Source: Escherichia phage ERS-1. Taken from it: a DNA stretch of 64,000 nucleotides. The position numbers were made by a program, and so were the translations under genes. Under the pieces are notes generated by a model. It had not been told where the DNA came from. It did not search any database and saw nothing but the letters and a program-made list of their open reading frames with translations. This document shows positions 1 to 64,000 of the stretch, in pieces (within the stretch, counting starts at the first letter, position 1; every line of letters starts with the position of its first letter). Where the stretch lies: the sequence record PP337211. One strand, given 5' to 3'.

Positions 1-1850
1 GGCACCGGGATGGCCCTTTGAGGGCGTCCCGGTTGGAGTACCCGGTGGTGATCTGGGTGATCACCGCCTTTGGCTTGTCTTTGCACCTCCGTCCGGTGGC
101 CGGTCGATGCGGTCGGCTTGCCGGCTCCTCCGCCGGGCGTCCGCTTCGGCTCGCCGCCGTCATCCTTCACCCGAGGATGCCCACCGCTTCCCGCCAGCGG
201 AAGGTCGTGCAGCCCTTCGCCCCGCCTTCCCGGCGCCGCTGTCTCGAAGTCCTCCCGCTGATGTCGGAGCGCCGCTCGCTCGCCGCGGAATCGACCCGCT
301 GGGCGGCGACGGTCGGGCGGCGACGTGTTCCTGGACGGTGACGCGGGAGCGCCTTGCCGCGGACCCGACGCGGTCCGCAGTCCTCCCTCCCCCGCGCCGC
401 GGGCCGCTGAACTCGATTGCGGTGCGGTCGAAGCTGTAGGCGAGTCGCTTCGGTCCCGGAGCTGACGTTGTCGGCCCAGGCTGACGGTCCCGGTCGGGGC
501 GATGGAAGTGAGGTGGGAGTTGCGGATGCCGTATTTGGCGATGGCGTCCTGCGTCCTCGCGGAGGGTCTTGATGAACTGGCCCTGAAGGTACTTGTCCTT
601 GTCGAACTTCGGGAAGGAGCCCTTGACCTTGGCGATGTGGGCGCTGGCCGTAGGGCTGCGCCTGCGTGTTGGTACCCTTGCCTCGAAGGCGAGGAAGGCG
701 GGCGAACCGTACGATGGCCTGGGCTTCGGCAGCGTTGGCCAGGCCGGTGATCCCGAGGCCCTTGCGGCGCTTGTCCTTGGCTTCCTGCTTCTGCGCGGCG
801 GTAGATCGCGCGATCGTACCGTTGTGCCATTGCGTGGACCTTCCTGCGGGATGTCCTCGCGGAACTGGTCCCGTCGAAGGCGTAGTGGCCCGCCCCGTCC
901 TCTAAGATGTACTTTACCTGTTGAAGGAGCCGGTGGTGCCGTAGGGCGGTAGGGTTGTCGTCCGTGGGGTTCGTGGCGGCGATGGTCTTGGGTTGGGCGT
1001 CGTTTGCGGTTGATCGCGTCGATGAACTTACGTCCCCGGCTCTGCCGGGTTGCCGGCTCGTGGCGATTGCGTCCTGGCGCCCGGGCGTCCGCTTCGCGGT
1101 AGGTCCGGCCCTCGAAGGTGAGGGGAACGGCTCGCCGGAGGCGACGCCGGCGCTGTCGGTGATGGCGACGGAGACGTTGAAGCCTGTTGCTTCTGGTCCG
1201 CTGAAGGGGATGATGGCCGCCGCTTCTCGGGGCTCCCTCCGGGAGTCGGTCCTCGAGGTCCGAGCGGCTGAACGTCCTTCCCGGGTCGCTTGGCGTGACG
1301 AACTCCTCGATGTCGGGATGGTCCGCGCATCACCCCCCCCGGGCTCCGCGGCGATGGCCGGCAGGAGGCGACGCACTGGGATCGCGTCGAAGATGTGCAT
1401 GAAGCTGATGGGGCCGGAGGAGTGGGACTGGAGCTTGCGGATCAGGTCGCCGCGAGGACGGAGGGTGCTGAAGTCAGGCCGATCCCGCCGCCCTTCCCGG
1501 TTGTGGCCTGCGGCTTCCGCGGCCCGGATTGACGGAGCCTTCGCCGTCCGCTTGAAGCTGTCGTTGATCGTCCCGGAGACGTAGCCTGTCCGTATGGCGT
1601 GACCTGGCGAGTGGAGCCCGTCGCGGACCGGATGCGGCCCGCCGGGAGGAAGTGGTACGCCTGCGAGGGCGTCCCGGAAGTCCGCGAAGTGCTGGTCATT
1701 GTCCTTCAGGGCCGCGGCGATCCGGTTCGTGGCCTCGCGGAAGGACTCGCCGCTGCCGCGGTACTTCTGGGCGTGTAGTTCTGTGAGTAGGGTACTTGAG
1801 GACCTGTCGGTGAGTCTCCTCGAAGGGTTGAGGGCTTTCTATCGTGTTGT
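1..1850 (-). CDS. Ribonucleotide reductase catalytic (alpha) subunit, copy 1; C-terminal end runs off the window start; frame broken by indels
   Basis: Reverse-complement translation gives RNR hallmarks spread over different frames: KYGIRNSHLTSIAPTGTV (~490-550), GFNVSVAITD (~1150-1180), HPDIEEFVHAK (~1300-1320), GKGGGIG and SSGPISFMHIFDAI (~1380-1500); GC3 is high in each motif frame. Confidence 0.8.
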
Positions 1851-1859
1851 TGCTCCTGT

Positions 1860-3026
1860 TCTTGGGCTAGGCGGTGAACGAGGTCGATGCGTTCCGCGGC
1901 CCGGGTAATGGCGGTGTACAACCCTTTCCTTCCGGCTCCTTCCCGTACCCCGTCCGGGGTGGCAGGACGTTGTTCCTTTGGGAGCCCTGCGACTTGTGGA
2001 CGGTGAGCGCACCTGCCCTGTCGAACTCCTCCGCGCCTTCCGCTCCCAGACTTCGGCTTGTTGCCGTGGAAGTAGTGGGGGTGGGCGCTGACTTCGACCT
2101 TCGCGCCGTCCTCGCCTTCGATGTCCTTGATGGAGTCGCTGTTGAAGATCGTGTCACGGCGGACCTTCCGGCTGGCCGTCGAGCAGGCCCGCCCTTCGTG
2201 GTCGTGAGGGGCCTTTGCCGTCGCCTTCCTGGGTGGGCGCGTCCGCCCGAGGAGTTCCCGGGACGTCGTCGCTCGTGATTCTCGTGGCGTTCCTGCCGGG
2301 TCAGGAGCTGGTCGGTGGACAGTACCATGTCCCGGAGTTCTTCGCGTGGTGGCGGCCATAGGAATCACGCGGCTGGCACCGTAGTCGCCGGGGGCGGAGC
2401 ACGCGGCCCTCGCGGACCTCCTTGGAGGTCCGGTCATCGGGTTGTCCTGGGCCTGGCGGTGAATCTCCGCGAGGACGTCGGGCTTGTCTTGAAGCAAGGG
2501 CGCTGCCGGGCGGGAGCTGTCCGGGATCGCCCGGGTGAGGACCGGTGCCGAAGTGAGGCCCTCCCCCCCGCCTGCCCGGACGGCGGAAGAATTCGCTTGC
2601 CGAGCGCGGCCCTCCAACCTGGGCGACTCCGCGTTGAGCTGGAAGGTCGGGCGGGCGAGGTTGATCTGCTCCGCCTTGATCGCCGGATCGACTTCTCCGG
2701 TCAGGGTTTCCGGGACGGGCTTGCGAGTGAGTAGCCGCGCCCGCTCCGCTTGGAGTTCCCTGGCGCTGCTGCGACTTGTCCTTGGGCGTGTAGATGAAGC
2801 TGCGAATGGTAATTCTCCGTTGGTCGCCCCGGACTTCGTGAGGACGTGAGCGGCCTTGCCGGTGTAGGCGGCGAAGGTGCCGGGACCTTTGACGGTCGCG
2901 GCGAGGTGTTTGGCCGGGTGGCCTGCCGGTTCCGGCGTACCCGGCGAGCTGGAAGGCAGGGCTTGTCCCGGGTCTTGACGTTGCCTGTCCTGGTTGGCGC
3001 GGTCTGCTGTTGGCGTACTCCGCGAT
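1860..3026 (-). CDS. RecD/Dda-like SF1B DNA helicase, copy 1; frame broken; start codon reads ATC where copy 2 has ATG
   Basis: Walker A AFQLAGYAGTG (~2930-2960), motif Ia FAAYTGKAAHVLTKSG, motif V TVHKSQGS (~1985-2010), motif VI LYTAITRAAERIDLV (~1885-1920), each in a different frame; RBS GGAGAA at 3032-3037 (rc). Confidence 0.8.
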
Positions 3027-3051
3027 GACCGTTCTCCGTTTCTGATAAGAA

Positions 3052-3072
3052 GGGGGGCCCTTGAAGGCCCCT
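3052..3072 (-). terminator. GC-rich hairpin between upstream gene and helicase RBS (terminator-like, no clear U-tract)
   Basis: Inverted repeat ggggggccc-ttgaa-ggcccc immediately upstream (on the minus strand) of the helicase RBS; conserved in copy 2. Confidence 0.35.
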
Positions 3073-3074
3073 GA

Positions 3075-3800
3075 AGGCACGCCGAGGGGGCGGGCCGTCC
3101 GGGCTGGTCCTCCCGGGTATCGGGTTGGCTGCCGCCGCCTGCGCCTGGGCTTCTCGTCGCGGCAGCCGGAGCTGGCGACGGGCGGCGCGGGCCTTGCCCT
3201 GCTGATCGTCGATTCGATGTCGGCGGACTGGAACAGCGGGTCATCGGGCAGGAGGCGAGCCGTGGGCGTTCTCTCGCCGTCGAAGGCGATGGTGTCCTGT
3301 TGAAGAAGGGCCCTTGTCGTCTGTCGGCTCGAGGCGGTAGCGGTGGGCGGCTGCGGAGCCGGGATGCGGCGACCGTCCCGGAATCCTGGATGGTCTTGGC
3401 CTTGTACCCTCTGCCCTTGTACTTCTTGATCTTCGTGGAGCCGAAGGCCCGACCGCTTCCCAGGCGTTGCCGCTGTTGCGCGTGCCGGCCCCGGTGGTGT
3501 AAGGTTCCGATTGGCTCGTTGCCGTCCGGGGGTGCTGCAGCTGCCGTGCTCGAGGACGCGGCCTTGGCGGTTCGCCGGGTCGCCGTCGACTCTGGGATGC
3601 CCGTTGCACCGCCGCCGCATCGCGGGGCTTCCACCACCGCACGTGCTGGGTGGTCGCCGGGACGAAGGCAATGCCCTTCTTGCCGTCCCAGACTTCGCCG
3701 GTCACCGGTGTTCGTGTACCCCGCCTGGCGGTGCTTGTCGTTCTCCTGGAGCTGCGGGCTGAGGGCCTGAAGAATCTGGAGGAACGGGATGCTGTAAGTT
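3075..3800 (-). CDS. Hypothetical protein upstream of helicase, copy 1; frame broken
   Basis: Protein-like peptides with high GC3 in rc frames: YSIPFLQILQALSPQLQENDKHRQAGYTNTGD, GEVWDGKKGIAFVPATTQHVRWWKPRD, STKIKKYKGRGYKAKTIQDSG, LLQQDTIAFDGE...DDPLFQSADIESTISRA. No family assigned. Confidence 0.35.
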
Positions 3801-4384
3801 GTCGCTGGTCCGGCTTCTCGAAACCCGCGCCCAGCCGTGCTGTGCCCTGGCCTCGCCGCGGCGGTGTTGTCTTTGTCGCCAGCGGTGGTCTTGCTATCGG
3901 TCTTGGCCCGGCGGCGCTGGCTCCTTCGGTTCGATGTGAGCGGGGCCGATTGGGCCCCCGGCTCGAATAGCCCTGCCGTCTGCCGGTGTACCCGCCATCG
4001 CCGCGGGGCGGTTGTAGGAAGGCCCGGGCCCGCCTCCTTCTGGGTCGTCACTTGGACGCTGACCACGGACCCCGAAAGGTTCTGGGACTTCCTGCCTTCG
4101 CTGTGGCCTCGCCGGCACGAAAGTGGTAGGGTTGAAGGATGGACGCTGGCGTTTGTCGTCGCCCGAACTCGTCCGCGAGACGCTGGCGGTTCGCTGCCTT
4201 CCCGCCTCGCCCTTGCCAAGGCGACTGGCGACCCGGCGCTCGATCAATCGCGGGCGTGGCCGTGCTCGCTCAGCTCAGGCGAAGGCGAGCGGGGCCTTGG
4301 CCTTCGGATGCTGGCGCCATCGTCTGCGGAATCCTTGATCTTCGGCTGGCGGTGGTCTTGGAGCTGCGGTATGCCGATCTGGTC

Positions 4385-4570
4385 CTCAAGTTTGGTACCC
4401 GGCGCTCCGCGATGTCGCGGAGTTCTTCGCGGGCCTTGTTGAGCTGGGCTTCGAGGCTGCGACCTTCGACGGGCGGCCTGTTGTTTGGCCCGCTGAGCCA
4501 GTTGGCGTGGCTTGACTCCGGCGGCTCGAGGTCTGTCTGGACGCGTTTTCCTTAGGCGTGGTTCTCCGTT
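4385..4570 (-). CDS. Small coiled-coil protein, copy 1 (start codon and stop both altered relative to copy 2)
   Basis: Homologous to 62703-62887; peptide ...KVADLEAQLDKAREELRDIAER; RBS GGAGAA present, but cacgcc replaces cacATGcc. Confidence 0.3.
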
Positions 4571-4596
4571 TCTTCGGCGAGGGTATTTGTATCGCT

Positions 4597-4630
4597 GAAG
4601 AAGTATAGCCGGTTGTTGCAAGAAGTAGAG
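4597..4630 (-). promoter_or_regulatory. Sigma70-like promoter, copy of the recurring family (-10 TATACT, -35 TCTACT, 16-bp spacer)
   Basis: rc sequence CTCTACTTCTTGCAACAACCGGCTATACTTCTTCAG; gene with RBS begins ~30 nt downstream. Confidence 0.45.
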
Positions 4631-6224
4631 GCCCAGGCGTTCACCGTGACCAGCGTTGGTCCTTGCCGCTCCGCTTGGAGGGATACGTCCCTTCGGTTGG
4701 TGTCCGCGGCGATGGCGACGGCGAACCCGATTGGGACTGGATCGCCCTTTGAAGGTGGTCCCCCGGCCCCGAAGCTTCGGCCGCTTCTCTTCGGTTTGGA
4801 ATGATTCGGCTCCGGCGGAAGGGGCCGCGGTCGGGCGGCGGGGCACCGGCCTTCCAACTCCTCCGCCGGCGAGGTTGAATTGGGCTCGAACCGCTGCTGT
4901 CGCGGTCCCTGCGGTGTTGGTCGGTGGCGGCTGACGGCTGGTAGTCTTGTGGTCCTGTCTTCCAGGCGGTCGCCGGTGATCTGGCTCGTCCCCGTTGAAT
5001 TTGTTCCTCAACGTTTTCCACCTTTCCTTCCCCTCGCAGTTCTCTGCCCTTGAGGTCGATGTACCCGCCGTTGTCGGTCTGTCCGATCCGGCGGGCGCGG
5101 CTCCTCCGACCAAGGCGGTCATTGAGCTTGAAGCTGTTGGAATAATAAATGACCGTCTTGGCCGCGGTCAAGGTGTCCGTGCCCGTCGCCCCCGCCGCGG
5201 GATCGCCCTGGCCGTCGCGGGCCCGCTCCTCCGGCGGACGGCCTCCGCCCGATCACCTGCCCGTTATGGTACAGGGGCGCTCGCCCTGGAACCTGGGCCT
5301 CGGCGTCCGCCCGCTCGTTGCGTTTCCCCTGCCGTTGGCCGGACCGCGCCGACGCCGCGCTCGCGGAGGGCGTCCGGATTGCGGCGATGCCGCTTTGCAA
5401 CTGGGCCCGGTCGATGCCCTTGCGCGGACTCCTCCATCAATTAGGTGCCGGGCGACGGTTCGGCCCCGCAATTCGGGTACCTTGGGTTCCGCTTCGTCGG
5501 TCGGGAGGTAGCTGTGATCTGCTGGAGGCGGAGGAGCCGGGTGATGGCGAGGGCGGCGATGACCGGGGCGGGGCCCTCCGCGCCCGTTGGGGGCGTCCCC
5601 GTCGGGTCGGTAGATGGAAGCGGTTGGGTTTGCCGCCGTTTGCCCGGCCCGTCGGTGCGTCTCGGCGACGGCTCGCGGCGACCGCTTCCGCGTCCCGGCT
5701 CACCCTGTTTCCCGCCCCTGTCATGTACTCGTCCGTGCTGGTGATATGCTTGCCCTGCTCCGGGGGTCCGTTTGGGAGAACTGCTCGCCGGTACTGTCGG
5801 CCGGGAGGTCTGGTGCGCCTCCCTTCGTGACCCGGGAGGAGACGGGCTGGAGTAGGGCGGTCGCGTGTCGGGCGGCGAGAGCCCTTCTGCCGTCCGTCTC
5901 CGCCTTCGTTCTTCTTGGTCTTTGGCTTGAAGGCGGTCGGGTCCTGCTCTTCCGGTCGTGAAGTGCTGTCTTGAACTCCGTGAAGGTGCCCTAGCGGTTG
6001 GGCTTCTGTAGTTGTTGTTTGTCCACCATCTCGGCTGTACAGGTGTTGAAGGGTCCCGGCTGTCGGAGTCCCGGCTGGGACCTGCCCTGAACGGCGCGTA
6101 CTTCGCGGAGCGGAGGATGGCAGCTGGTGCGCTCCGCGGTCGGGTCTTGATGCAGCGCGCCTTCCCTGACGTAATGTAGGCGGCGCTTGTCCAAGAAGTC
6201 GGTTGGCCCGCTTCCCGGAGGTGG

Positions 6225-6651
6225 TCAAGGCTTCAGGCGATGGCGGAGCCTGGTGAAGCCCTCGTGCTCGATGACGGCCTTGACCGCCTGCTCGTGCCCT
6301 TGGTGTCGGCCTTCGGGCTCTGGTAGTGGAAGGCCCGGACGTGCTTGATCGCGTTCGGGTACGTGGTCCGGAGATTCCCTCTCAACCCAGTTGCGGTGCA
6401 CGCTGTTCGGGCGACCACCTCGCTGTCGATGAGCCGCGGAGCCAGAGCCAGAGGCGGTGTCGATGGTCAGCTTGGACTTGCCGGCGCCCTGTTCCCGGAA
6501 GATCGCGCGGGCTTCTTCTTCGCGGGAGCGTGTCACTCCTCGCGCTGGCGGTTGAAGGGTTCGGCTTGAAGGGGTATTGGAGGGCGGCCTCATTTCTCGG
6601 CGATGCCCGGAAGATAGCCCAGCTGGGCGGCGAAGGCGAGCGGAGAATCAT
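6225..6651 (-). CDS. P-loop NTPase-like protein (first gene downstream of AT-rich island A); frame broken
   Basis: rc frames give EEEARAIFREQGAGKSKLTIDTASGSGS (Walker-A-like GAGKS), TTYPNAIKHVRAFHYQSPKADTKG, HEQAVKAVIEHEGFTRLRHRLKP then stop at 6225. Confidence 0.4.
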
Positions 6652-6739
6652 GTGCGCTTGGGAGGGGGGCCCAACGCTCGACTTCGTGTGCTGAAGAAGT
6701 ATGAAGTGGAGAGGCAGTGGAAGCCCTGTGGGGCTGGGG

Positions 6740-6910
6740 GTTTATATATTCTTCTTCTTCTTCTTTAACTCACTCAACTTACTTACCTTAACCCCCGCAC
6801 GGCCTCTTGGAACCTAGGCAACGGTCGCCGGTCGCCTCCCTGGGGGTCCCGGCGATTTATCGGGCGAAGTAGAACTGAACTGGAGAAGTGAAGTAACCTA
6901 AGCGAGGAGG
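6740..6910 (-). promoter_or_regulatory. AT-rich intergenic island A: TATATA box, (AAG)5 microsatellite, conserved 31-nt element, iteron-like GAGTTA repeats
   Basis: tttatata at 6741-6748; cttcttcttcttc at 6751-6763; ttaactcactcaacttacttaccttaaccccc at 6765-6796; homologous to 31420-31640. Confidence 0.5.
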
Positions 6911-6991
6911 GTCGGAGCTGTTACGGCGCTGGGCCTTCCATGGCGCTTGGGGCTCAGACCTTCGGGCGTGAAGGTAAGTATCCCAGCGTTC

Positions 6992-7342
6992 TCATTTGCG
7001 GAACCTCTCCTTGAGGCCCAGGAGGATCGGGGAGACCAGGCTGCAGAAGAAGATGCCCAGCAGTGGCACGGTTCCCCTTCCGCTCCTGTCCTCCCCGGAC
7101 TCGCGCCACTGGCGGAGGTGTTGGAAGTCCCTCTGGCGGCCAGCGGCTGCACGTGTTGGCCCGAGCTGGACTGTGTTTGCTTCACGGCTTCTGCCGCTTA
7201 CGCTGTTGGCTCCGCGCGGACGGCCCGGCTTCCGCGGCTCGCTTCGCCGCGTCCTCGCGGTAGCTTCGCCGCCCGGGTCTGTGGCCGGGCGGCGATGTCT
7301 TCGACTTGCTCCGGGCGGGGGTGTCGGTCCTGCGCGGGTCAC
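6992..7342 (-). CDS. Small membrane protein (C-terminal transmembrane helix); holin-like candidate; N-terminal extent uncertain
   Basis: rc frame ends ...GTVPLLGIFFCSLVSPILLGLKERFRK then stop at 6992 (hydrophobic helix followed by basic tail, high GC3); lies at the end of the structural block next to island A. Confidence 0.35.
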   Translation of the reverse strand: MTRAGPTPPPGASRRHRRPATDPGGEATARTRRSEPRKPGRPRGANSVSGRSREANTVQLGPTRAAAGRQRDFQHLRQWRESGEDRSGRGTVPLLGIFFCSLVSPILLGLKERFRK

Positions 7343-7949
7343 CTCGGCTGTACTCCACGGAGTCCGGGCCCCTGGGGGTTCAGATGGCCTGTCCTGTCCG
7401 CGTCCTTCCCCTGCGAGCCCGTGGACCGTGTCGGCTTGCCGGGTGGTGTCGAGTATCGGCCCCCGATCCGGAGGCGGCGCCGCCGCCGGCGGCTTCGCGG
7501 TCGTGCCGTAGCCGCGGAGGAACTTCCCGCGCCGCCGTGCCGGTAGGCGCTGTTGGCATCCTCCGGCGGAAATGGTCCTCCCCTTCTTCGGCGAAGACTT
7601 CTGCCGTCGCCGCGCTCGAATAGCGCGCGATCCGTTGGCCCGTACCCGGTTGTTCGTGCCGGTCGGGCTCGCCGGGCTAGGCCATGCTCCCCGTCCGCGG
7701 GCGAAGCCGGTTGGGCGGTCGTGGTCGCGGACTTCGCGTGGCCCTTAGAAGGCCGTCGGTCCTGGCGGAGGAAAGACTGAAATTGGTTGTAGGGCGCTGG
7801 TCCCCCAGCGCGCCGTTCCCTTGATGCCCGTTCGGGCCGTCACTGATAGCCGTTGGGACCTTCGGTACAGTTTGGGTATGTTCCCGAGTCGCTGTTCCCG
7901 GTGCGACGTGGGATCGGTAGCTGTCCTGGCCGTCGCGGACCGCCGTGAC

Positions 7950-8880
7950 CTCATCCGTTCCGGCCGCGGCGTTCTCCGTCGCCTCGTCGGTCGGTTTCTG
8001 CCGGCGCCGGTTGTGCCCGGCTCCGATTTTCGGGAGCGCGCCGCCGTTGGCCGCGTAGATGTCCGCGGTAGGTGTACCCGGCTCCGGCGATGTTCGCCGC
8101 GGAGTGGTCGATGACGGATGGATCCGCTGCGGTCCGGTCGCGGTGTGCCGGGTACAGGCTTGTCTCTCCGAGGATAGCCGAAGGATACTGGAGAACTGCT
8201 TTGCCGGAAGTTCCCGGGAGCGTAGGGGCGCGCGAAACGGCTACCAGCGCCTTCGAGTCCTCCGGCGGGCGGAGGTGTCCTACGCCACCCGGACTGGCCG
8301 GCCCTTCGCGGCGATGGTCTCGCCGCCTGTTATACGGAGCCGGTCGGCGCGCGGGCGTCCTCCGCGGAACGGAAACTGCGCCCCGGCTGCGCGTTCCGCG
8401 CAGACGAAGAATCGAAAGCAATCCCCACCCTGTCACTGACCCGTTCACCAGGTCGATAGCGTCCCTTGCCTGCGATTTCGTTGTCGGTTGCCGTCCACCG
8501 CTCCGTGGGGTTCGGTGCGGGAGGGCCTGGTTGGACCTGCTGGATGGAGGTCTGTATGGGCGTGATCGCGTTCGTCCTGGCCAGCGTGCGCCGCGGGGTC
8601 GCCGGTGGCCGCGTATGCGTAGGACCCGCCCGTGGCTTGTCCCTGGTCGGGGCTCTGGAGGTACTGGCGGGCTTGCCCTTTGCCGATCCAAGGCGGAGGC
8701 GTTGTCCAGCGCCTGGAGCTCGCCGAGGCTCGTTCGCCAAGTTGGAACAGTTCGCCTCCTCCGTAACGGCGGAGGGCGAACGGGTTGGGCGCTTGAACCG
8801 GGTCCTCTGCCGAGCCCTGGTTGCCCGTAGGTGGAGGACGGAAGGCCAAGGCTCGGTTGTGCTCCGCCGCATTCACCCGC
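7950..8880 (-). CDS. Hypothetical protein(s), structural-like; frame broken
   Basis: Protein-like rc peptides: AVLQYPSAILGETSLYPAHRDRTAADPSVIDHSAANIAGAGYTYRG, YLQSPDQGQATGGSYAYAATGDPAAHAGQDE. Confidence 0.25.
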
Positions 8881-46429: not shown

Positions 46430-46445
46430 AAGAAGTATAGAGCGT
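46430..46445 (-). promoter_or_regulatory. Probable promoter -10 element of the same family (TATACTTCTTC); -35 degenerate
   Basis: agtata at 46434-46439 (rc TATACT) upstream of the primase-helicase gene. Confidence 0.3.
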
Positions 46446-53245: not shown

Positions 53246-53556
53246 CTTGGGTTCTCCACCGGTTGAAAACGGCGGAGCCGGAGCCCCGCCTGGTTGCTGT
53301 TGGTTGCGTGATCGGGATGATCTTGCGCTCGCCGCCGTCCTCCTCCGGCGGGTCTGGTTCCACGATCTTCTTGAAGTCGGGCGAGCGGCCTTCGCCGCTC
53401 CGGCTGGTTCCGAACCGGCGGGCTTGCCCTTCGTCCGCTGTCCGCGCGGTGGAGACCTGCCGGTGGGGCGCGTCCCTTGACCTCCTGGAAGGGCTGGCCC
53501 GTCGGTCCGGTGAAGGTTCGGCACGCGCTGGCCGTGGCCGGTCTGCGGTGATCATT

Positions 53557-53955: not shown

Positions 53956-54143
53956 TTCGTCAGATGGTCCTGAAGGCTGATGGCCCCGGCAGGCCGTGCC
54001 GTTGTGGTCGTTGCCGGTGTTCTGTGACTTCTGGGCGTAGCTGTAGGGGTTCCGCTTCGGGTGCCCATGGCCCGTGACGGTAGCCGAGACGGCTGGAAAG
54101 AAGATGGTGCCGGGCTCCCGAAGGCTTCCGCCCCCGCCGGGCG

Positions 54144-54680: not shown

Positions 54681-54704
54681 TCTCCTTCAACTGTGAAAGT
54701 CAGC

Positions 54705-54738
54705 GCCTTACCCGGAAGAAGTAAAGCGGCGTTAATTC
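54705..54738 (-). promoter_or_regulatory. Weak member of the promoter family (-35 TTTACT intact, -10 degenerate)
   Basis: rc CGCCGCTTTACTTCTTCCGGGTAAGGCGCTGACTTTCACAG directly upstream of the RBS at 54681-54688. Confidence 0.3.
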
Positions 54739-57049
54739 GGCCCGGCTCGCCCGTCGCTTCCGGGCGGCTCCCCTGGCCTTCGTCTCCTCCGAACGCCGGC
54801 GACCGGCGAACTGCCCGGAACCGTGCGGCGACCCTTCCGCGTCGGGTCGTCTGGTTGTCCTTTTGGGACCCGAGGGTGAACGCTTGGGGTTGACGGTGGC
54901 GGTCGGTCGCTGTGAACCTGGCGTCACCGCTGTCGGGGATCGGCAATTGTTCGAAGGGCTCGAGGATAGCCGATTCCTGCCGCTTGTAGTCGATGTTGGC
55001 GTGTACCGTGCTGAAGTACCTGGAGCAGGTCGGGTCCTGTGCTCCCGTCTCCGGGTCCTCCTTACAGCGGGCGTTTAGGTGAGCCGGTCCGTCACGGTTA
55101 CCGATGTTCGGGCGATGGGGCGTGGATGGACGGAAGCCTGTCGAGCGGGTCGCTGCGTTTCGGCTTTTGGGACGGTAACGGGTTGGGGAACGGGGCGGAG
55201 GCGTCCCGGGCCGCGTCCGCGTACCCGTAGCCCTCGTCCGGATGGGTCGATCCGGTTGCCCGGTCCGGCCCGCGGCCTTCTCGATGTACTCCCGGCTGGC
55301 GTCCTGGCTCCGCAGATCCGCTTGTGGAGGATGACGTCGTAGTTGCGGAGGCTCGCCTCCTCCAAGCCCTCGAGTGCCCGGCGGCGACCGTCCCCCGAGC
55401 CGACACCGATGACCGGGTCCCGGCAGTCCGGGAGGTGCGGGGCGGTGCGGACGGCCTCCGCGGCGTTCTCCGTGATCGACTCCGGGAGCTTGGGGCGTTG
55501 GCTGTAGCTGTCGTGGTAGTTCTCCTGGTGCTCTGGCCGGACGGGCGATCGCGGAGCGGCCCGCCGGGATGTCCAGGTCCGCCCCGAGCTGGCGAGCGTG
55601 CTGCTGTTGGACGCGCGGGCGTCCGCGGCCCCGTCGCGCTTGAAGCGGGGCCCGTAGTTCGCTTGCACCCGTTCCCCAGCTGCTGGCGTAGGCGACCGCC
55701 CTGCCCGCCTTCGAGCGGCACGTGTCCGGCTGCCGATGGTGGTTCTTCTGCTGGTCTCGATATGGGCGAGGCCCCGTGAATCTCGCTGAAGGACGGACCC
55801 GGAGCGCCCTGCTCTCCCGCTTCAGGATCGGCACCCCGTCAGCTGGTGTTCGACCGGGGCGTCGTTGACGATTGTTGCTGCTCTTGGGCGTGGTCGAGGA
55901 AGGCCCGTGCGGCGGAGGCGGCCTGCCTCGGTCGAGCCCGCCGTCGATTTCCCGGATGTCGTTCCGGGTGGGAGCTGGCCCTTCGCGGGATTTTCCGGTT
56001 TGCCGCCGCACCGTCTCCACCTTCTGGATGTTCGGCGGGCGGTTGCCGGGTGGGGCGAGGTCCGCGAACTGCCGGTTTGTAAGTCCGCGACCCTGGGCGA
56101 TCGCCTCGCGCTTGGGCTTCGCGTTCTCCGGGTACTCGTGAGCCTCGCGCCGCTCCGCCGTCGCGGCCTTCTCCGGTCCTTGAAGCGAAGACGGCGGCGT
56201 TGTCCGAGTCCGCCGGCATCTCGACCGGTTCCGGCTTGTCGCGATCTTGAAGCTGATCGGGACTGAAGCCGTTGTGCTCCTGGGCGCGGGCGGAGACGGT
56301 GCGGAAGGGGCGCTCCTCCTCCGTCGCCCGGGCTCCCCGGTGGGTGCCCCGCCTCCCGGGCGGTCGCCGAGCGGGCCTGGAGGGAGGTCCCGCAGTCGGC
56401 GGTGCGACCCTGGCCTGTAGCGGCGGCGCTCGCGTCCCCGGAGGCCTGTGACCCCCGGCGGGCGTCTCCTCCTCGTGGTGGGCCGCGACGTCCCTTTGCG
56501 GAACCTCGCCCTCCTTCTCCAGGAAGGAGGCGACCCCGGCGTGGAGTAGCTCCAGGTTGAGGCTAGCCTGTGGGCGGGTGGAGAAGTCCCCCGCCTGCCC
56601 GCGCCGAACCAGGGCCGTGCACACGGGGTCGGATCGCGGTGGTGATCCGGTGTCGGCCGGGAACGTCTCGATGTCCGGTTGGGGCAAGTTTCTGCCGTGT
56701 CTTTTCTCTGGTATGCGTGACCGATTTTCCCGCTCGTGTCCTTGCACATGTCCGGTTGGGTAATTGGCGACTGAAGGAAGGCTCCGTGCGGACTTCTTCG
56801 TTGACGTGAATACGGGATGGACCGTCTGCCCTTGCCGTCGCCGTCCTCCGTGATCCGGGTGAATCCCGCAGGTAGCTTGAGGGCTCCCTTCTGTATCCCC
56901 GCTCCGCCGGGCACCTCCGGCGGAGGGTAGCCGCGTGCGCTCCGAGGCTCCCAGTGGCCTTGCCCTGCTTGGGCTGGCGGGCTACCGGCGGGCGTCCTGC
57001 CTTCGGCGGACTTCTGCGGCTCGTGGGCCGGGATCGCGTGGCCTTCCGG

Positions 57050-57690
57050 GACCTCACGTGGAACCGCTTGTGCCGTCCGCGGCGAAGGCGGAGCGGCACC
57101 CGCAGCCCTTCCGCTTCATGTCCTGCTGAAGCCGGAGGGCGTGGCTCGGTCCGGGCTTGTTGCTGCCCGGGCTTCGACCTGTTCCTGCCTTGGTCGTCCG
57201 TTTCGGGGCGGGATCCTGTATGTCGGGAGACGCCCGCTCCAGCCCTCGCGGCGGGGATCGGGGCGTGGCCCGGGCGGCCGTGTCGGCGCCGCGCGGGGCG
57301 CGGGCCTTCTTCTCCTCCGCGGACTTCGGAGCCTTCTGGGCCTTCGGAGGCGACGGGGCGGGGGTTGCGGTTTGTTTGCGGTTTCGACCTTCTGGGTTCG
57401 GCCTGCTCTGCCGCTCAAACTTCCGGGTGCGCTTCGGCATAACGCGCCAGGCATCTTCTGGTGTGGGGCAATGGCGGTGGTCTTGTTGGCGAAGCGGCGC
57501 ACGTTCGGACGGACTTGCCGTTGCGGAAGGTGCCGATGACTTCGTCGGACCTGCTCGACCAGGGCTGGGCCGGAGGGCTCGCTGGGAGGCTTCGGTGTAG
57601 GCGACGTTGTCGAAGTTGATGGTGTTGGCGGTAGGCTCCTTTTCTGGGGTTGAGGTGCGATCTTGTTCGACCGTGAGAGAATCTTAACCC
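57050..57690 (-). CDS. Hypothetical small protein(s) downstream of RNR copy 2; frame broken
   Basis: rc peptides [69 protein letters not shown]...EEKKARAP. Confidence 0.25.
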
Positions 57691-57712
57691 TGGCCCCCGA
57701 AGAAGTAAAGTG
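57678..57712 (-). promoter_or_regulatory. Sigma70-like promoter of the recurring family (-35 TTTACT 57704-57709, 17-bp spacer, -10 TAAGAT 57681-57686)
   Basis: rc CACTTTACTTCTTCGGGGGCCAGGGTTAAGATTCTC. Confidence 0.45.
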
Positions 57713-58201
57713 GTTTGACTAACTTTTTCAGGTTCTCGGTCCGAAGGCCGGGTGCCCGTTGGACGGCGGAGGGCGAACCGTTGAGGCCTTCTTCCCTGAA
57801 GGCCCGGGCGGCGTCCCTCGTGCCCTGGTTCTCCTGTACCGGCTGGTTGCGCCCCGAGGTGTGCGGTACCCTGGCGACCTCGAAGCCCTGCGACGTCCTG
57901 GCAAACCCTTGCCGGTGGAAGTCCTGGCGCTGGGCCGGATAGCCGAAAGCCTCTGCGACGTCTCCGCCGGGTCAGGAGGATGACGTGCCGACCGCCGGTG
58001 GTGGGCCTCCACCGCGGCCGCGGGCACCCCGCGTCCCGGGCGGGCCGCTTGTCGTCCCGCTTCCGGCGCCCCGGGAAGGTGTGGAGGGTGTCGGCGCGGT
58101 CGAAGGTCTTGAGGTAGTCCTTGGCGATAGGCCCGCCTGCTTCGCCCTACGCCCTCCCGCGGAGGACCGCGGAGGGGAGCCAGGGGCCGGTCGGGTCCGT
58201 G

Positions 58202-60130
58202 TTAGGTCCGGCGCTGGCCGATGAGTAGGGGCTTGTTCGGTTCTTCGGGCTCCTCGCTTTCTTCTGGTGACGTTTGGTTTGAGGGCTCGCTCTGTACCGG
58301 GATGGCCCTTTGGGGTGTCCTGGTTGCGCGAAGGAGGAACCCGGCCGGTGAATCTGGGTACCGCCTTCTGTCTGTCCTTTGCACCCTCTCCGTCCGGTGG
58401 CCGGGTCGACGCGGTCCGGCTCGCCGGCTCCTCCGCCGGGGCGTCCGCTTCGGGCTCGCCGCCGTCTCTTCCTTTGCCAGGATGCCCACCGCTTCCCGCC
58501 GGGCGGAAGGTCGTGTGCCCTTCGCCCCGCCTTCCCTGGTGCTGGCTGTGTCCCAGTCTTCCCGCTGATGTCGGAGCTGCCGCCGCTCCGCTCGCCGCGG
58601 AACGACCCGCTGGGCGGCGACGGGCGGGGCGGCGACGTGTTCCTGGACGGTGACGCGGGAGGGGCCTTGCCGCGGACCCGAACGCGGTCCGTAGTCCCCC
58701 GCCTTCGCCTCGCGGGCCGCCTGAACTCGACGGCGGTGCGGTCGAAGCTGTAGGCGAGTTCGGCCGGACCGGAGCTGACGTTGTCGGGCGTGCCGACGGT
58801 CCCGGTCGGGGCGATGGAAGTGAGGTGGGAGTTGCGGATGCCGTATTTGGCGATGGCGTCCTGCGTCCTCGCGGAGGGTCTTGATGAACTGGCCCTGAAG
58901 GTACTTGTCCTTGTCGAACTTCGGGAAGGAGCCCTTGACCTTGGCGATGTGGGCGCTGCCTGGTAGGCTGCGCGTGCGCGTGTCGGTACCCTGCCTCGAA
59001 GGCGAGGAAGGCGGGCGAACCGTACGCGGCCTGGCTTCGCGCGTTGCCCTGCCGGCGATCCCGAGGCCCTTGCGGCGCTTGTCCTTGGCTTCCTGCTTCT
59101 GCTGCGGCGGGTACATCGCGCCATCAACCCGTTGCCATCGCGCGGACCACCTGCGGATGTCCTCGCGGACTGGTCCCGTCGAAGGCGTAGCGGCCCGCCC
59201 CGTCCTCTAAGATGTACTTGACCTGTTGAAGGAGCCCAGGAGGCAGGCACCGTAGGGCGGCAGGGGTTGCTCGCCGGTGGGGTTCGTGGCGGCGATGGTC
59301 TGGCGTCCTGGCGCTCGTTTGCGGTTGATCGCGTCGATTAATGGCGTACCCGGCTCCGCCTGTCCCGTTCGTGCGATCGCGTCCTGGCGCCTGGGCGTCG
59401 CTTCGCGGGCAGGTCTGGCCCTCGAAGGTGAGGGGAACGGCTCGCCGGAGGCGATGCGGCGCTGCCTTGTCGGTGATGGCGACGGAGACGTTGAAGCTGG
59501 TTGCTTTGGGTCTGCCGAAGGAGACGGGCCGCCGCTTCTGGGCTCCCTCCGGGAGTTGGTCCAGGTCCGGCGGCTGAACGTCCTTCCCGGGTTGCTTGGC
59601 GTGAATGAACTCCTCGATGTCGGGATGGTCCGCGGATCGTTGTCCGGGCTCCGCGGCGATGGCCGGCAGGAGGCGACGGCTGGCAATCGCGTCGAAGATG
59701 TGGGTGAAGCTGATGGGGCCGGAGGAGTGGGACTGGAGCTTGCGGATCGGTCGCCGCGAGGACGGAGGGTGCTGAAGTCAGGCCGATCCCCGCCGCCCTT
59801 CCCCGGTATCGCGTGGCCGCGGCTTCCGCGGCCCGGATCGCTTGACGGAGCCTTCGCCGTCCCAAGCTGTCGTTGATCGTCCCGGAGACGTAGGTTGTAT
59901 GGCGTGACCTGGCGAGTGGAGCCCGTTTGCGGACTGGATGCGGCCCGCCGGGAGGAAGCTGCGCCTGGAGGGCGTCCCGGAAGTCCGCGAAGTGCTGGTC
60001 ATTGTTCCTTCAGGGCCGCGGCGATCCGGTTCGATGGCCTCGCGGAAGGACTCGCCGCTGCCGCGGTACTTCTGGGCGTGTAGTTCTTGTGAGTAGGGTA
60101 CTTGAGGACCTGTTGTGAGTCTCCTGAAGG
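58202..60130 (-). CDS. Ribonucleotide reductase catalytic (alpha) subunit, copy 2 (3' end present); frame broken
   Basis: Same motifs as copy 1 plus RQTIAATNPTGEQPLPPYGACLLGSFN (NPCGE-type active-site region); C-terminal ...EESEEPEEPNKPLLIGQRRT then stop at 58202. Confidence 0.8.
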
Positions 60131-60139
60131 GTTGAGGGC

Positions 60140-61306
60140 TTTCTATCGTGTTGTTGCTCCTGTTCTTGGGTAGGCTGGTGAACGAGGTCGATGTGTTCCG
60201 CGGCCCGGGTAATGGCGGTGTATGCCCCTTTCCTTCCGGTCCTTCCCGTACCCCTGTCCGGGCCTGGCGGACGTTGTTCCTTCGGGAGCCCTGCGACTTG
60301 TGGACGGTGAGCGGCTGCCCGTCGAACTCCTCCGCGTCCTCCGCTCCCAAGATTCGCTTGTTGCCGTGGAAGTAGTGGGGGTGGGCGCTGACTTCGACCT
60401 TCGCGCCGTCCTCGCCTTCGATGTCCTTTACGGTCGCCGCTGTCGAAGATCGTGTCGCGGCGGACCTTCCGGCTGGCCGTTGAGGCCTGCCCGTGGTTGT
60501 TGCGGAGGTGCCGCTCGTCGCCTTCCTGGGTGGGCGTCTGTCCGCCCGAGGAGTTCCCGGGTACGTCCGTTGCTCGTGATTCTCGTGGCGTCCTGCCGGG
60601 TCAGGAGCCCTTGGCGGTGGAGGTACCATGTCCCGCAGTTCTTCGCGCTGTGGTGGCGGTGGGAATTTGTGGCTGGTCCGTAGTCGCCGGGGCGGAGGCG
60701 CGGCCCTCGCGGACCTCCTTGGAGGTCCGGAACGATCGGGTTGTCCTGGGCCTGGCGGTGAATCTCCGTGAGGATGTCGGGCTTGTTCTTGAAGAAAGGG
60801 CGCTGCCCGGCGGGAGCTGTCCGGGATCGCCTGGTGAGGATCGGTGCCGAAGCCAGGCCCTCCTCCCGCCGTCGGTTGCGGAGATTTGCGAGCGTGGCCT
60901 CGAACCAGGGGCGACTCCGCGTTGAGCTGGAAGGTCGGGCGGGCGAGGTCGATCTGCTCCGCCTTGATCGCCGCAATCGACCTTCGCGAGGGTTTCCGGG
61001 ACGGGCTTGTGAAGTGAAGAGCCGCGCCCGCTCCGCTTGGAGTTCCTTCTGGTGCTGCTGCGACTTGTCCTTGGGCGTGTAGATGAGCTTGTGAATGGGT
61101 TCCGTTGGTCGCCCCGGACTTCGTGAGGACGTGAGCGGCCTTGCCGGTGTAGGCGGCGAAGTGCCGGACCGTCGACGGTCGCGGCGAGGTGTTTGGCCGG
61201 GTGGTCTTGCCGGTTCCGGCGTACCCGGCGAGCTGGAAGGCGGGCTTGTCCCGGGTCTTGAGCGATGCTGCCCGGTTGGCGCGGTCCGCCGTTGCGGACT
61301 CCGTCA
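60140..61306 (-). CDS. RecD/Dda-like SF1B DNA helicase, copy 2 (intact ATG start with RBS); frame broken internally
   Basis: rc GAAACGGAGAACGGTC-ATG (ATG is complement of 61304-61306): MTESATADRANRAASLKTRDKPAFQLAGYAGTGKTT...FAAYTGKAAHVL...; motif V TVHKSQGS in frame with HYFHGNK; motif VI YTAITRAAEH one frame off. Confidence 0.8.
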
Positions 61307-61334
61307 TGACCGTTCTCCGTTTCTGATGAAAAGA

Positions 61335-61355
61335 AGGGGGGCCCTTGAAGGCCCC
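61335..61355 (-). terminator. GC-rich hairpin upstream of helicase RBS (copy of 3052-3072)
   Basis: ggggggccc-ttgaa-ggccccc inverted repeat. Confidence 0.35.
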
Positions 61356-61364
61356 CTGAAGGTA

Positions 61365-62100
61365 CGGCCCGAGGGCGGGCCGTCCGGGCTGGTCCTCCCG
61401 GTGGAATCGGGTCCGGCTTGCCGCCGCCTGCGCCTGGGCTTCTTCGTCCGCGAGCCCGGAGCCTGCGAACGGGCGCGCGGGCCTCGCCCTGCTCGATCGT
61501 CGATTCGATGTTCGGCGGATGGAACCTGCGGTTGTGGGCAGGAGGTGAGCCTGCTGGGCGTTCTCGCCGTCGAAGGCGATGGCGTCCCGTTGAAGAACTG
61601 GCCCTTGTCGTTCTCGCTTGCGGTCTTGAGGCGGTAGCGGTGGGCGAACCTGCGGAGCCGGAATGCGGCGACCGTCCGGCGGAATCTGGATGGCTTGGCC
61701 TTGGTCCTTCCTGCCCTTGCACTTCTTGATCTTCGTGGAGCTGAAGGCCGGTGACCGCTTCCAGGCGTTGCCGTGGTCGTTGCGCGATGCCGGCTGGCGC
61801 AAGGTTTCGATCCTGGCTCGTCGCCGTCCGGGGTGCTGCAGCTGCCGTGCCCCGAGGACGCGGCCTTGGCGGGTTCACCAGGTCGCCGTCGACTTCGTGG
61901 ATGCCCGCAAACCGCCGCCCGCATCGCGTGGGCTTCCACGCCACGTACACGTGCCGGGTGGTCGCCGGGACGAGTGGACGCCCTTGGCCGTCCCGGCTTC
62001 GCCGGTCCCGGTGTTGGATCATGCCCTGGTGGTGCTGTCGTTCTCCTGGAGCTGCGGGCTGAGGGCCTGAGAATCTGGAGGAACGGGATGCTGTAGTCAT
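61365..62100 (-). CDS. Hypothetical protein upstream of helicase, copy 2; frame broken
   Basis: Homologous to 3075-3800; shares the SIPFLQIL and DTIAFDGE peptides but with different indels. Confidence 0.3.
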
Positions 62101-62702
62101 TGCTGGTCTGGCTCTCGAAAACCCGCGCGCCCGCGTAGTGGTGCGTGCCTGGCCTCTGCGGTTGCGGTGTTCTGTTCCTTCAGCCCGAGGTCGGTGGTCT
62201 TGCTATCGGTCTTCTGGCGGTTACAGGCTCCTTCGGTTCGATGTGAGCGGGTCGATTGGGCCCCCGGTCGAATAGCCCTGCCGTTCCTGCCGGTGTACCC
62301 GCGTCCCGCGGGGCGGTTCGGCTCGGGAGGAAGGCCCGGGGCCGTCCTCCTTCCTGGTTTGTTCTTCGATCTTGGACGTGCTGACGATGGACCCAGGTGT
62401 CGGGGGACTTCCTCGCCTTGCGTGGCCCTCGCGGACGAAAGCGGTAGGGTTGAAGGATGGACGCTGGCGTTGTCGCCGCCTCGAACTCGTCCGCGAGACG
62501 CTGGCGGTTCGCTGCCTTCTGCCCCTCGCCCTTGCCGAAGGCGACGGTGACCCGCGCTCGATCATCGCGGCGCGGCCGTTCTGCTCGAGCCGGCGAAGGC
62601 GAGCGGGGCCTTGGCCTTCGGGATGCTGGCGCGGATCGTCTCGTCGGGTTTGATCTTCTGGCGGTGGTGGTCTTGAGCTGCCAAGTTGCGCCGATCTGGT
62701 CC

Positions 62703-62887
62703 TTAGTTTGTACCCTGGCGCTCCGCGATGTCGCGGAGTTCTTCGCGGGCCTTGTCGAGTTGGGCTTCGAGGTCTGCGACCTTCGACTGGGCGCCTGTTG
62801 TTCGGCCTGCTGAGCGAGTTGGTCCTGGCTTGTCGCCGGCGGTCTGAGGTTGGACATAGTCCAGGTATGCGTTTTCACTTGAGGCAT
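62703..62887 (-). CDS. Small coiled-coil protein, copy 2 (ATG and stop present, one internal frameshift)
   Basis: rc GGAGAACCAC-ATG (ATG is complement of 62885-62887); C-terminal frame ...SKVADLEAQLDKAREELRDIAERQGTN then stop at 62703; length is not a multiple of 3. Confidence 0.35.
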
Positions 62888-62927
62888 GTGGTTCTCCGTT
62901 TCTTCGGTAGAGGGGTATCCCAATTGC

Positions 62928-62965
62928 TGAAGAAGTATAGCCGGTTGTTCGGAAGAAGTAAAGAG
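62928..62965 (-). promoter_or_regulatory. Sigma70-like promoter of the recurring family (-35 TTTACT 62957-62962, -10 TATACT 62934-62939, 17-bp spacer)
   Basis: rc CCTCTTTACTTCTTCCGAACAACCGGCTATACTTCTTCAG; paralogue of 4597-4630. Confidence 0.55.
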
Positions 62966-64000
62966 GCCCAGGCGTCCACCGCGATGTAGCGTTGGTCCTT
63001 GCCGCTCCCTTAGCAGGGACGTCCCGTCGTTGGCGTCCGCGGCGATGGCGACGGCGAACCGATTGGGTACCGGATCGCCCGAGGCGAGGTGGTCCCCCGG
63101 CCCGAAGTCGGCCCGCTTTCTCCTCGGGCCGGTCATTCGGCTCCGGGCGGAAGGGGCCGCGGTCGGGCGGCGGGCACCGGCCTTCCCCAACTCCTCCGCC
63201 GGCGAGGTTGAATTTGGGCTCGAACCGCTGCTCGTCGCGGTCCCTGCGGTGTTGGTCTGTACAAATACACGGCTCGGGGTAGTCGTCACAACCTGTCTTT
63301 GAGGCGGTCGCCGGTGATCTGGCTCGCCCGTCCAATTCGTTTCGGCTTTCCCCTTCCCTTCCCCGGAGTCCTGCGCCCAGGTCGATGCACCTGCCCGTTG
63401 TTGGTCTGTCCGATCCGGTGGGCGCGGTCCTCCGACTGGAGGCGGTCGTTTGGCTTGAAGCTGTTGGAATAATAAAATGACCTGCTCTGGCTGTGGTCGG
63501 GTGCCGGTGCTGCGTCGCCCCCGCCGCGGGGTTGCCCTTTAGCCTCGCGGGCCCGCTCCTCCGGCGGACGGCCTCGCGCCCTGGACCCTGCCCGTTGTGG
63601 GCAGCGGGCGCTCGCCCTGGAACCGGGCCTCGGCGTCCGCCCGCTCGTCGTTCGTTTCCTGCCCTGCGGCGGACCGCGCCGACGCCGCGCTCGCGGAGGG
63701 CGTCCATTTGGTGATGTCCGCTTCTGGAACCGGGCCCGGTCATCGCCTTGCGCCGGACTCCGACGGTTCCGGGGTGTCGGTGACGGCTCGGCCCCGGGAT
63801 TGTGTACCCGGGTTCCGCTTCGTCGTCGGTCGGGAGGTAGCTGGCGTGATCTGCTGGAGGCGGAGGAGCCGGGTGATGGCGAGGGCGGCGATGACCGGGG
63901 CGGTGCCCTCCGCGCCCTGTCGGGGCGTCTCCTGGTCGGTGGGTAGACGAAGCCGTTGAAATTTTTTACCGCCGTTTGCCCGGTGCCGGGCGTCCGGCGA

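Follow-up and report, generated by a model that had tools for sequence, protein, structure and literature searches.

The 64,000-nucleotide stretch of Escherichia phage ERS-1 (PP337211) analysed here, hereafter referred to as the window, contains recognisable phage genes whose reading frames are broken throughout. This raises the question of whether the lesions belong to the phage DNA itself, or were introduced when that DNA was read. A preliminary description had reported conserved enzymes to be frame-disrupted, and had favoured recent or technical lesions over long-term decay.

Genome identity and layout

The window (1–64000) corresponds to 1.09 units of a Yuavirus genome (family Mesyanzhinovviridae), the genus of the Pseudomonas phages M6, YuA and PAE1. 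It is colinear over its full length with reference genomes of this genus. Three blocks align to PaTs-2 (MH791403.1) and span positions 1–63956 (window 1–15242 to PaTs-2 45730–61810, window 15253–38006 to PaTs-2 1–23840, and window 38071–63956 to PaTs-2 24612–51645), and PAE1 is likewise colinear outside the mosaic early region. All genes lie on the − strand, and the genome content shows the mosaicism normal for a Yuavirus, with an HNH insert also present in PC1 and LKO4. The nucleotide identity to PaTs-2 is 79%, and about 50 isolates are tied at ∼81.5% identity to the window, suggesting that identity is capped by error rather than by divergence.

The window crosses the arbitrary ends of PaTs-2 and repeats 5.9 kb of this reference, before being cut at 64,000. 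Two repeat copies had been described previously, and they are indeed present, at 1–5624 and 58293–63956, both corresponding to PaTs-2 45730–51645. They are 85.5% identical to each other, with 370 gap events and 348 mismatches. In a circularly permuted genome, copy 2 would represent either terminal redundancy or concatemerisation, and the layout is consistent with the circular permutation and headful packaging reported for this family (PMC11946847).

Considering only positions of the doubly read region at least 7 nt from a + strand CA dinucleotide, the two copies both agree with PaTs-2 at 91.9%. A difference confined to one copy is seen at 5.8% of these positions, equivalent to ∼3% random error for each copy, and the copies share the same difference at 2%, which places true divergence at no more than 2%. 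Once errors are discounted, identity is therefore high across the doubly read 5.9 kb, and the sequence beneath the errors would be that of an ordinary Yuavirus, with an identity of at least ∼98% to known isolates.

Disruption of reading frames

I counted 3,565 frameshifting indels in 66,955 aligned bases, or one per ∼19 bp, in genes whose homologues are intact in PaTs-2 and PAE1. The frame disruption described previously is thus confirmed, but it is considerably denser than the one lesion per ∼50–300 bp then proposed. Ribonucleotide reductase (RNR), DNA polymerase A and the primase-helicase carry 78–111 frameshifting events each, with a longest in-frame run of 64–137 bp. On the − strand, the RNR alpha gene is located at 82–1806 (copy 1, 82 frameshifting indels) and 58380–60112 (copy 2, 78), a Dda-like helicase at 1867–3023 and 60170–61304 (51 frameshifts in either copy), a DNA helicase at 4948–6580 (79 frameshifts), the primase-helicase at 43299–45611 (111) and DNA polymerase A at 47094–49005 (90). 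Every gene tested is affected, structural genes among them. Disruption is as heavy in the genes of the terminase and the major tail protein, and in hypothetical genes, as in these enzymes, and conserved enzymes are therefore not singled out, contrary to what had been implied.

Within the Dda-like helicase, the motifs HYFHGNK and TVHKSQGS are in frames 0 and 1 in copy 1, and in one common frame in copy 2, while a one-frame offset separates the RNR segments LREDA and IAKYGIRNS in either copy, in agreement with the preliminary description. The latter junction had been attributed to a 7-bp tandem duplication in the RNR gene (gcgtcct ×2, 544–557, − strand, with an identical lesion at 58856–58869). 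This duplication is only apparent: PaTs-2 and PAE1 both read GGCGTCCCGCACGTCCTC at this site, while the window reads GGCGTCCTGC--GTCCTC in a three-way alignment, corresponding to the loss of 2 nt at a CA and a C-to-T change. The true RNR protein at this position is LREDVRDAIAKYGIRNS. The site is among 80 deletion runs found in both copies, and it was thus correct that at least one lesion is common to both.

Stop codons are also affected: the − strand of the window has 262 TGA triplets, compared to 1048 in the reference, and its longest stretch without a stop reaches 1771 codons (877 in the reference). A 1744-codon ORF (35763–40997, − strand) is a spurious product of this loss of stop codons.

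Anatomy of the errors

The + strand of the window is strongly depleted in A (10.4%, against 15.8% in the reference). Among reference A, 15% are deleted and 27% substituted, compared to 4% and 5% for G, and the overall error affects 42% of A sites against 19% of T sites. The A of + strand CA pairs with the T of TG on the − (coding) strand, and is erroneous at 80% of 3,848 sites, while the error is only 14% in GA, 31% in AA and 29% in TA. This failure holds regardless of the flanking bases, and CA is intact as CA in only 12.9% of cases; using PAE1 as a second reference, the CA error is 81%. The preliminary description overlooked both the depletion of A and its CA/TG cause, and had suspected homopolymers. 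Homopolymer length has a mild effect on errors and is a minor contributor only, the main driver being the CA/TG context.

The error peaks at 83% at the A of CA, and decays over ∼5 nt to a baseline of 8–10%, with a footprint spanning about −5 to +7 nt around the dinucleotide. This decay matches the width of the k-mer sensed by a pore. As computed from the error profile, 54% of all errors are located within 2 nt of CA on one strand. The failure is strand-asymmetric, as in a read of a single strand (80% error for + strand CA, against 26% for + strand TG), and the error at the A of CA is 68–89% in every 2-kb bin over 64 kb, with no strand switch. Deleted bases outnumber inserted ones (4,798 against 1,725), which, together with the wide footprint, is as expected of a nanopore-type read.

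Where the sequence was read twice, 68% of CA sites have an erroneous A in both copies. The two copies carry different wrong calls at 33% of the sites, and such calls cannot be real sequence. Only ∼8% of CA/TG sites are correct in both passes. The 80 shared deletion runs comprise 112 deleted bases, where ∼22 would be expected if the copies were independent, and 58 of the 80 are within 2 nt of CA (background 24%).

A second, weaker signal was also identified, in which the T of + strand TG is read as C in ∼15% of cases, even where any CA is at least 7 nt away. It is partly site-correlated between the copies; the explanation proposed below does not account for this signal, which counts against it.

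Origin of the errors

The strand asymmetry, the tie to one dinucleotide, the ∼5-nt footprint, the recurrence at the same sites (often with differing wrong calls) and the disappearance of the errors elsewhere strongly support the technical half of the previous “recent or technical” proposal. The best explanation, to which I assign a probability of roughly 0.78, is that the errors are technical and do not reflect decaying genes, the window being an unpolished, raw, nanopore-type read of a single strand from an ordinary Yuavirus possessing 5-(2-aminoethyl)-2'-deoxyuridine (5-NedU) at TG. Most likely, a single raw nanopore read was saved in reverse-complemented form. The anatomy of the errors, with its dinucleotide and strand specificity and its recurrence between copies, is observed directly, whereas I infer the platform (from the error profile alone), the strand that was read, and 5-NedU at TG as the cause.

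In this model, the DNA molecule would be longer than one genome unit, leading to ∼5.7 kb being read twice. Yuavirus phages swap about one third of their thymines for the bulky 5-(2-aminoethyl)uracil (5-NedU), with the modified base probably placed on the T of 5'-TG-3'. As the coding (−) strand went through the sensor, each modified T would give a signal that the base-caller cannot decode, and would be deleted, or called C, A or G, with the calls a few bases on either side disturbed as well. Since TG occurs every ∼17 bases on the − strand, this would produce a frameshift every ∼19 bp. Modified TG on this strand would also explain the loss of A on the + strand, the loss of TGA stops, and the lesions found at the same sites in both copies.

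Alternatively, the errors may be technical but originate from an unpolished long-read assembly of very low coverage (a miniasm- or Canu-style contig), with overlapping ends derived from different reads. Overlapping ends are a frequent outcome when circular genomes are assembled, and here the window ends repeat each other with different errors, while the baseline error away from CA is just ∼3% per copy. Frameshift-ridden genes are a well-known artefact of unpolished long-read assemblies, and as in the window, indels break every ORF, motifs are found in shifting frames, and deletions outnumber insertions. Homopolymers are the usual driver in such assemblies, whereas here they are minor and CA/TG is dominant. 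Against an assembly origin, a consensus of both strands would mend the + strand CA sites, since reads of the opposite strand have the right bases at such positions. The observed error of 80% is however uniform over 64 kb, and no 2-kb bin shows the mirror pattern. The differing wrong calls at 33% of CA sites also resemble single-pass calls. I therefore consider an assembly origin unlikely, although deserving of some weight.

Could the lesions be real, the genes being true pseudogenes of a prophage-like element that carries a duplicated segment and is decaying or hypermutated? Frames are broken throughout and some lesions are common to both copies, and pseudogene decay in degraded prophages similarly leaves interrupted frames with recognisable domains. 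Such decay is however dominated by substitutions, strand-symmetric, and identical in duplicated copies, none of which applies to the window, where one indel per ∼19 bp is found beside at least 98% identity away from CA. The same reference base fails in both copies, yet 33% of CA sites show a different outcome in each, and the errors are distributed symmetrically around a single dinucleotide of one strand. Substitutions found in one copy only show no preference for a codon position (25 at position 1, 28 at position 2 and 23 at position 3), and the concordant T-to-C changes are 15 nonsynonymous and 3 synonymous. A mutational process restricted to the A of CA, deleting or randomising it on a single strand of an entire genome, is not known. 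This reading is thus scarcely credible. The window was accordingly not assigned to the class of decaying prophages, as the lesions of its duplicated copies differ and evolutionary patterns are absent.

Artificial corruption, or a machine-generated sequence (from a read simulator or a generative model), was also considered. Simulators have context-free or homopolymer error models, whereas the errors here track one dinucleotide, in agreement with independent wet-lab data on Yuavirus, and the genome content is that of a normal mosaic member of the genus, with the HNH insert as in PC1 and LKO4. I consider the probability of an artificial origin to be negligible.

Thymidine hypermodification

As the modification genes of the window are untranslatable, the pathway was deduced from its colinear relatives. 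The 5-NedU gene set, comprising a dUMP hydroxymethylase, a 5-hmdU DNA kinase, an amino acid:DNA transferase, a PLP decarboxylase and a radical SAM isomerase, was identified in PaTs-2, whose orthologues, rather than the window's own genes, respectively match PF00303, PF18748, PF18724, PF00291 and, below the gathering score, PF04055; the window is colinear across all five. A thymidylate-synthase-like gene (dUMP hydroxymethylase, PF00303 in the PaTs-2 orthologue) is located at 50123–51128, and the hypermodification cluster, encompassing the other four families, at 52709–56698, both on the − strand. The cluster includes, on this same strand, the 5-hmdU DNA kinase (52709–53245), a radical SAM enzyme (53298–54673), the HNH endonuclease insert (about 54728–55177), a PLP enzyme (ending at 55873) and the amino acid:DNA transferase (55875–56698).

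The Yuavirus phages known for 5-NedU, with M6 as the example (PMC5889632, PMC8989533, PMC6449724), belong to the same genus and share the gene order of the window, with colinear ThyA-like, 5-HMUDK, AADT, PLP and radical SAM genes. In M6, ∼30% of T is 5-NedU by LC-MS (PMC5889632). In the reference, TG represents 36% of T on the − strand and 32.9% on both strands, so that the affected share of T in the window (TG = 33%) matches the M6 value, which suggests that the errors report a sequence-specific modification.

For M6, two candidate dinucleotides, TG or TC, have been put forward from restriction resistance (Flodman et al., 2019; PMC6449724). I re-counted the published digests, and found that 52 of 55 enzymes with an obligatory TG/CA in their site fail to cut (95% resistance), against 28 of 111 enzymes without possible TG/CA (p = 8e-19), and that TC/GA had no effect on M6 resistance in this re-count. 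Some TC-only sites are resistant in M6 (SacI, SapI, EarI, AatII), which counts against TG alone. In the literature, the specificity of Yuavirus modification is given as “TG or TC”, and as “not known whether random or specific”, while the error map of the window and the re-count of the published table both indicate TG alone.

It is conceivable that base-callers or chemistry have a generic weakness at CA/TG in high-GC DNA, unrelated to modification. Context-specific systematic errors exist on long-read platforms, and a weaker CA-to-CG-type error is seen on the other strand too. Any single read is expected to be strand-asymmetric under such a weakness, and the link to modification therefore relies on the effect size and on the external M6 data. 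Here, 87% of one dinucleotide is lost, against ∼3% random error at least 7 nt away; the genus is known by experiment to modify ∼30% of T, and TG is 33% of T; and the restriction protection of M6 DNA is specific to TG/CA sites. This makes a generic weakness quite improbable.

I lean towards interpreting the error map as an accidental single-molecule footprint of the modification, in which 5-NedU would target 5'-TG-3' irrespective of the surrounding sequence, TC would not be a target, and nearly every TG would be occupied. This high occupancy of the 64-kb strand is suggested by the small fraction of sites (∼8%) that are correct in both passes. The artefact and the M6 re-count point to a single target dinucleotide for Yuavirus thymidine hypermodification, namely TG. 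If true, this would pin down the DNA-level sequence specificity of the pathway, presumably determined by the 5-hmdU DNA kinase, and would predict the restriction and defence systems that these therapeutic-candidate phages escape.

Comparison with modified phage DNA

Hypermodified phage DNA can make a native long read just 79% identical to its source, and uncorrected reads of such DNA reach databases, where they resemble a divergent or degraded virus. The window is unfit for the mining of genes, be it for pseudogenes, recoding or new ORFs, because its frameshifts, long − strand ORFs and skewed composition are all artefacts.

No nanopore error or signal map of M6-like phages was found in the literature searched. 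In the Pseudomonas phage iggy, dPreQ0 was mapped at GA by nanopore (PMC10484667), using raw signal against a WGA control, with usable base calls, whereas the window consists of base calls alone, with ∼13% of the dinucleotides correct. The modified base is G in iggy, and would be T in the window. Modification at nearly every GA nonetheless lowers read quality and disturbs the neighbouring calls in iggy, as observed around TG here, which provides a precedent for the model proposed above, and the fraction of modified sites matches that obtained by LC-MS (PMC10484667).

Genome identity and layout

A BLAST search with window positions 1–8000 identified ∼50 Pseudomonas Yuavirus genomes (PaTs-2, PAE1, Clover and others), with 100% query cover and 81.4–81.7% identity. 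Exact matching of 41–50-mers against viral, genome and metagenome contigs returned nothing, apart from a conserved, error-free 44-mer described below. The window is colinear with the PaTs-2 genome (MH791403.1, hereafter the reference) in three blocks, with window positions 1–15242 corresponding to reference positions 45730–61810, 15253–38006 to 1–23840, and 38071–63956 to 24612–51645, and thus represents 1.09 genome units, crossing the arbitrary ends of the reference. This is consistent with the genomes of this phage family, which are described as circularly permuted and packaged by a headful mechanism (PMC11946847). All genes are encoded on the − strand. Reference positions 45730–51645 occur twice, at window positions 1–5624 (copy 1) and 58293–63956 (copy 2), and these copies share 85.5% identity, with 370 gap events and 348 mismatches over 5.9 kb.

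Local differences to the reference were also observed. Some 450 bp at window positions ∼54728–55177, flanked by the genes for the radical SAM and PLP enzymes, are missing from PaTs-2; they match an HNH homing endonuclease that phages PC1, LKO4 and PSP2 carry at this position. In PAE1 an endonuclease gene is also annotated there, and its sequence does not align with this insert. At positions 38006–38071, 65 bp replace PaTs-2 23840–24612 (the hypothetical gene PaTs2_39), and the early region (31000–38200) is a mosaic, for which phage Pa-C (MN871456.1) is the best colinear match.

Frame disruption across the window

I counted frameshifting indels against the reference CDS map, and found 3,565 in 66,955 aligned bases. 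This is one per ∼19 bp, much denser than the one per ∼50–300 bp proposed in the preliminary description. The conserved enzymes emphasized there are indeed affected, with 82 and 78 such indels in the two copies of RNR, 90 in Pol A and 111 in the primase-helicase, but they are not singled out: damage is just as heavy in the genes for terminase and the major tail protein, and disruption is window-wide. Across the tested genes, the longest in-frame run is 64–137 bp. The reading frames reported for individual motifs are correct, with HYFHGNK and TVHKSQGS in frames 0 and 1 of copy 1 but sharing frame 2 in copy 2, and with LREDA and IAKYGIRNS offset by one frame in both copies alike.

Errors are concentrated at CA on the + strand

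The + strand of the window contains 10.4% A, versus 15.8% in the reference. Of the reference A's, 15% are deleted and 27% substituted, compared to 4% and 5% of the G's. The preceding base is a C for 69% of the miscalled A's, but for only 12% of the correct ones. Accordingly, the A is wrong at 80% of CA sites (n = 3,848), versus 14% for GA, 31% for AA and 29% for TA, and only 12.9% of CA dinucleotides are retained as CA. No wider motif is apparent, as the error is flat (76–85%) regardless of which base occupies −3, −2, +1 or +2. It reaches a maximum of 83% at the A of CA and falls to 8–10% over ∼5 nucleotides, with ∼54% of all errors located within 2 nucleotides of a CA and ∼72% within 5. Overall, deleted bases (4,798) outnumber inserted ones (1,725).

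This pattern does not stem from the poor quality of the PaTs-2 record, which is flagged UNVERIFIED, since the RefSeq genome of PAE1 gives the same statistics (81% at CA). Homopolymers, at which a check of the indels had been suggested, do have an effect, but a mild one: per-base deletion is 2.5% for single bases and still only 4.7% for runs of length 5, and they are not the main indel source. In each 2-kb bin the CA error is 68–89%, and a strand switch is absent throughout; the mirror pattern appears in no bin, which argues against a contig pieced together from + and − strand reads. An unpolished contig, derived from a very small number of same-strand reads, is an unlikely alternative.

A lesion common to the two copies was previously described as a 7-bp tandem duplication (gcgtcct ×2) in the RNR gene. 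In a three-way alignment both references read GGCGTCCCGCACGTCCTC, while both window copies read GGCGTCCTGC--GTCCTC. Nine bases in the references thus correspond to seven in the window, and the lesion is a two-nucleotide loss at a CA combined with a C>T change, its repeat-like appearance being coincidental. The true RNR protein at this site is LREDVRDAIAKYGIRNS. Nor is this lesion unique: 80 deletion runs (112 bases) are common to the two copies, against ∼22 bases expected under independence, and 58 of the 80 lie within 2 nucleotides of a CA, for a background of 24%.

Sequencing error and real divergence

Where the sequence was read twice, both copies have a wrong call for the A of CA at 68% of sites, the two wrong calls differ at 33%, and both calls are correct at only 8%. 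Copies that differ site-specifically between two passes cannot be real sequence. The frame disruption is therefore not a genomic feature but a sequencing artefact, and of the origins considered in the preliminary description, technical lesions were the right one.

At 7 or more nucleotides from any CA in this region, the two copies both agree with PaTs-2 at 91.9% of positions, a single copy deviates at 5.8%, corresponding to a random error of ∼3% per copy, and the two deviate concordantly at 2%. Substitutions confined to one copy show no codon-position bias. T>C is the dominant concordant class, with 15 nonsynonymous and 3 synonymous changes; since these are mostly nonsynonymous, even part of the 2% is systematic error, and real divergence accounts for at most ∼2% of these positions. 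Within the doubly read region the underlying phage thus shares at least ∼98% identity with known Yuaviruses, and is an ordinary member of the genus.

A modified thymine as the probable misread base

I infer the platform, the strand read and the chemistry. Because complementary bases fail at very different rates, it would appear that only one strand was read. The excess of deletions, together with a k-mer-wide footprint around one base, would be the signature of a nanopore base-caller meeting an unfamiliar base. As CA(+) corresponds to TG on the − strand, the misread base would be a modified T of TG.

The probable cause of the artefact, hypermodified thymine in Yuavirus DNA, is already known. 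Approximately 30% of thymidine is replaced by 5-(2-aminoethyl)deoxyuridine in Yuaviruses (PMC5889632). This base is built up within the DNA, through the action of a 5-hmdU DNA kinase, an amino acid:DNA transferase, a PLP decarboxylase and a radical SAM isomerase (PMC8989533). The PaTs-2 orthologues match the corresponding Pfam families, and colinearity of the window extends across this cluster (50123–56698). In the reference, TG accounts for 32.9% of all T, in agreement with the LC-MS figure of ∼30%. There is a precedent in dPreQ0 at GA, a dinucleotide-specific phage modification that degrades nanopore reads and also affects neighbouring bases (PMC10484667); no published map of nanopore errors or signals in M6-like phages was found in the literature searched.

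The target had been given as "TG or TC" from restriction resistance, with the specificity stated as unknown (Flodman et al., PMC6449724). I re-counted Supplementary Table 1 of that study, restricting the count to the 187 enzymes with sites in phage M6. M6 DNA blocked 52 of the 55 enzymes with an obligatory TG/CA, versus 28 of the 111 without a possible TG/CA (Fisher p = 8e−19). For TC/GA there was no difference (51% versus 50%), although a few TC-only sites are resistant. TC as a second target is further disfavoured by GA(+), which is TC on the − strand and the least error-prone A context (14%). These two independent lines, the error map and the M6 re-count, suggest that TG alone is the target, probably with near-complete occupancy, an element that is only modestly new.

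A weaker signal is not accounted for by single-strand reading of modified TG. Throughout the window, a C is called for the T of TG(+), and also of TA(+), at ∼15% of sites, and this holds even at a distance of 7 or more nucleotides from any CA(+); examples span reference positions 46273–51583, mapped to window ∼500–5600 and ∼58800–63900. The rate is about equal to that of CA>CG (15.1% versus 15.9%), the changes are mostly nonsynonymous, and they are partly site-correlated between the copies, with C in both at 20 sites, in one at 39 and in neither at 229.

False open reading frames and reference quality

Miscalling of TG removes TGA codons, three quarters of which are lost from the coding strand (262 in the window versus 1,048 in the reference), and thereby creates spurious − strand ORFs, for example at 35763–40997 (−). 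Mechanical ORF calling yields false − strand ORFs of 800–1,771 codons, each spanning many real genes. In PaTs-2, the closest reference, several genes have no more than a misc_feature annotation ("similar to"), suggesting that this record is likewise frameshifted, and several sibling records (MN8714xx) lack annotation.

Finally, a 44-nucleotide repeat is present at window positions 34540–34583 and 36949–36992, with weaker copies at 57671–57714 and 62924–62967. A sigma-70-like − strand promoter lies within it (TTTACT, 17 nucleotides, TATACT), with two occurrences where shuffled sequences gave an expectation of 0.0. On the − strand the element lacks TG, and its reading is error-free; the exact 44-mer is present in two short, unrelated metagenome contigs.
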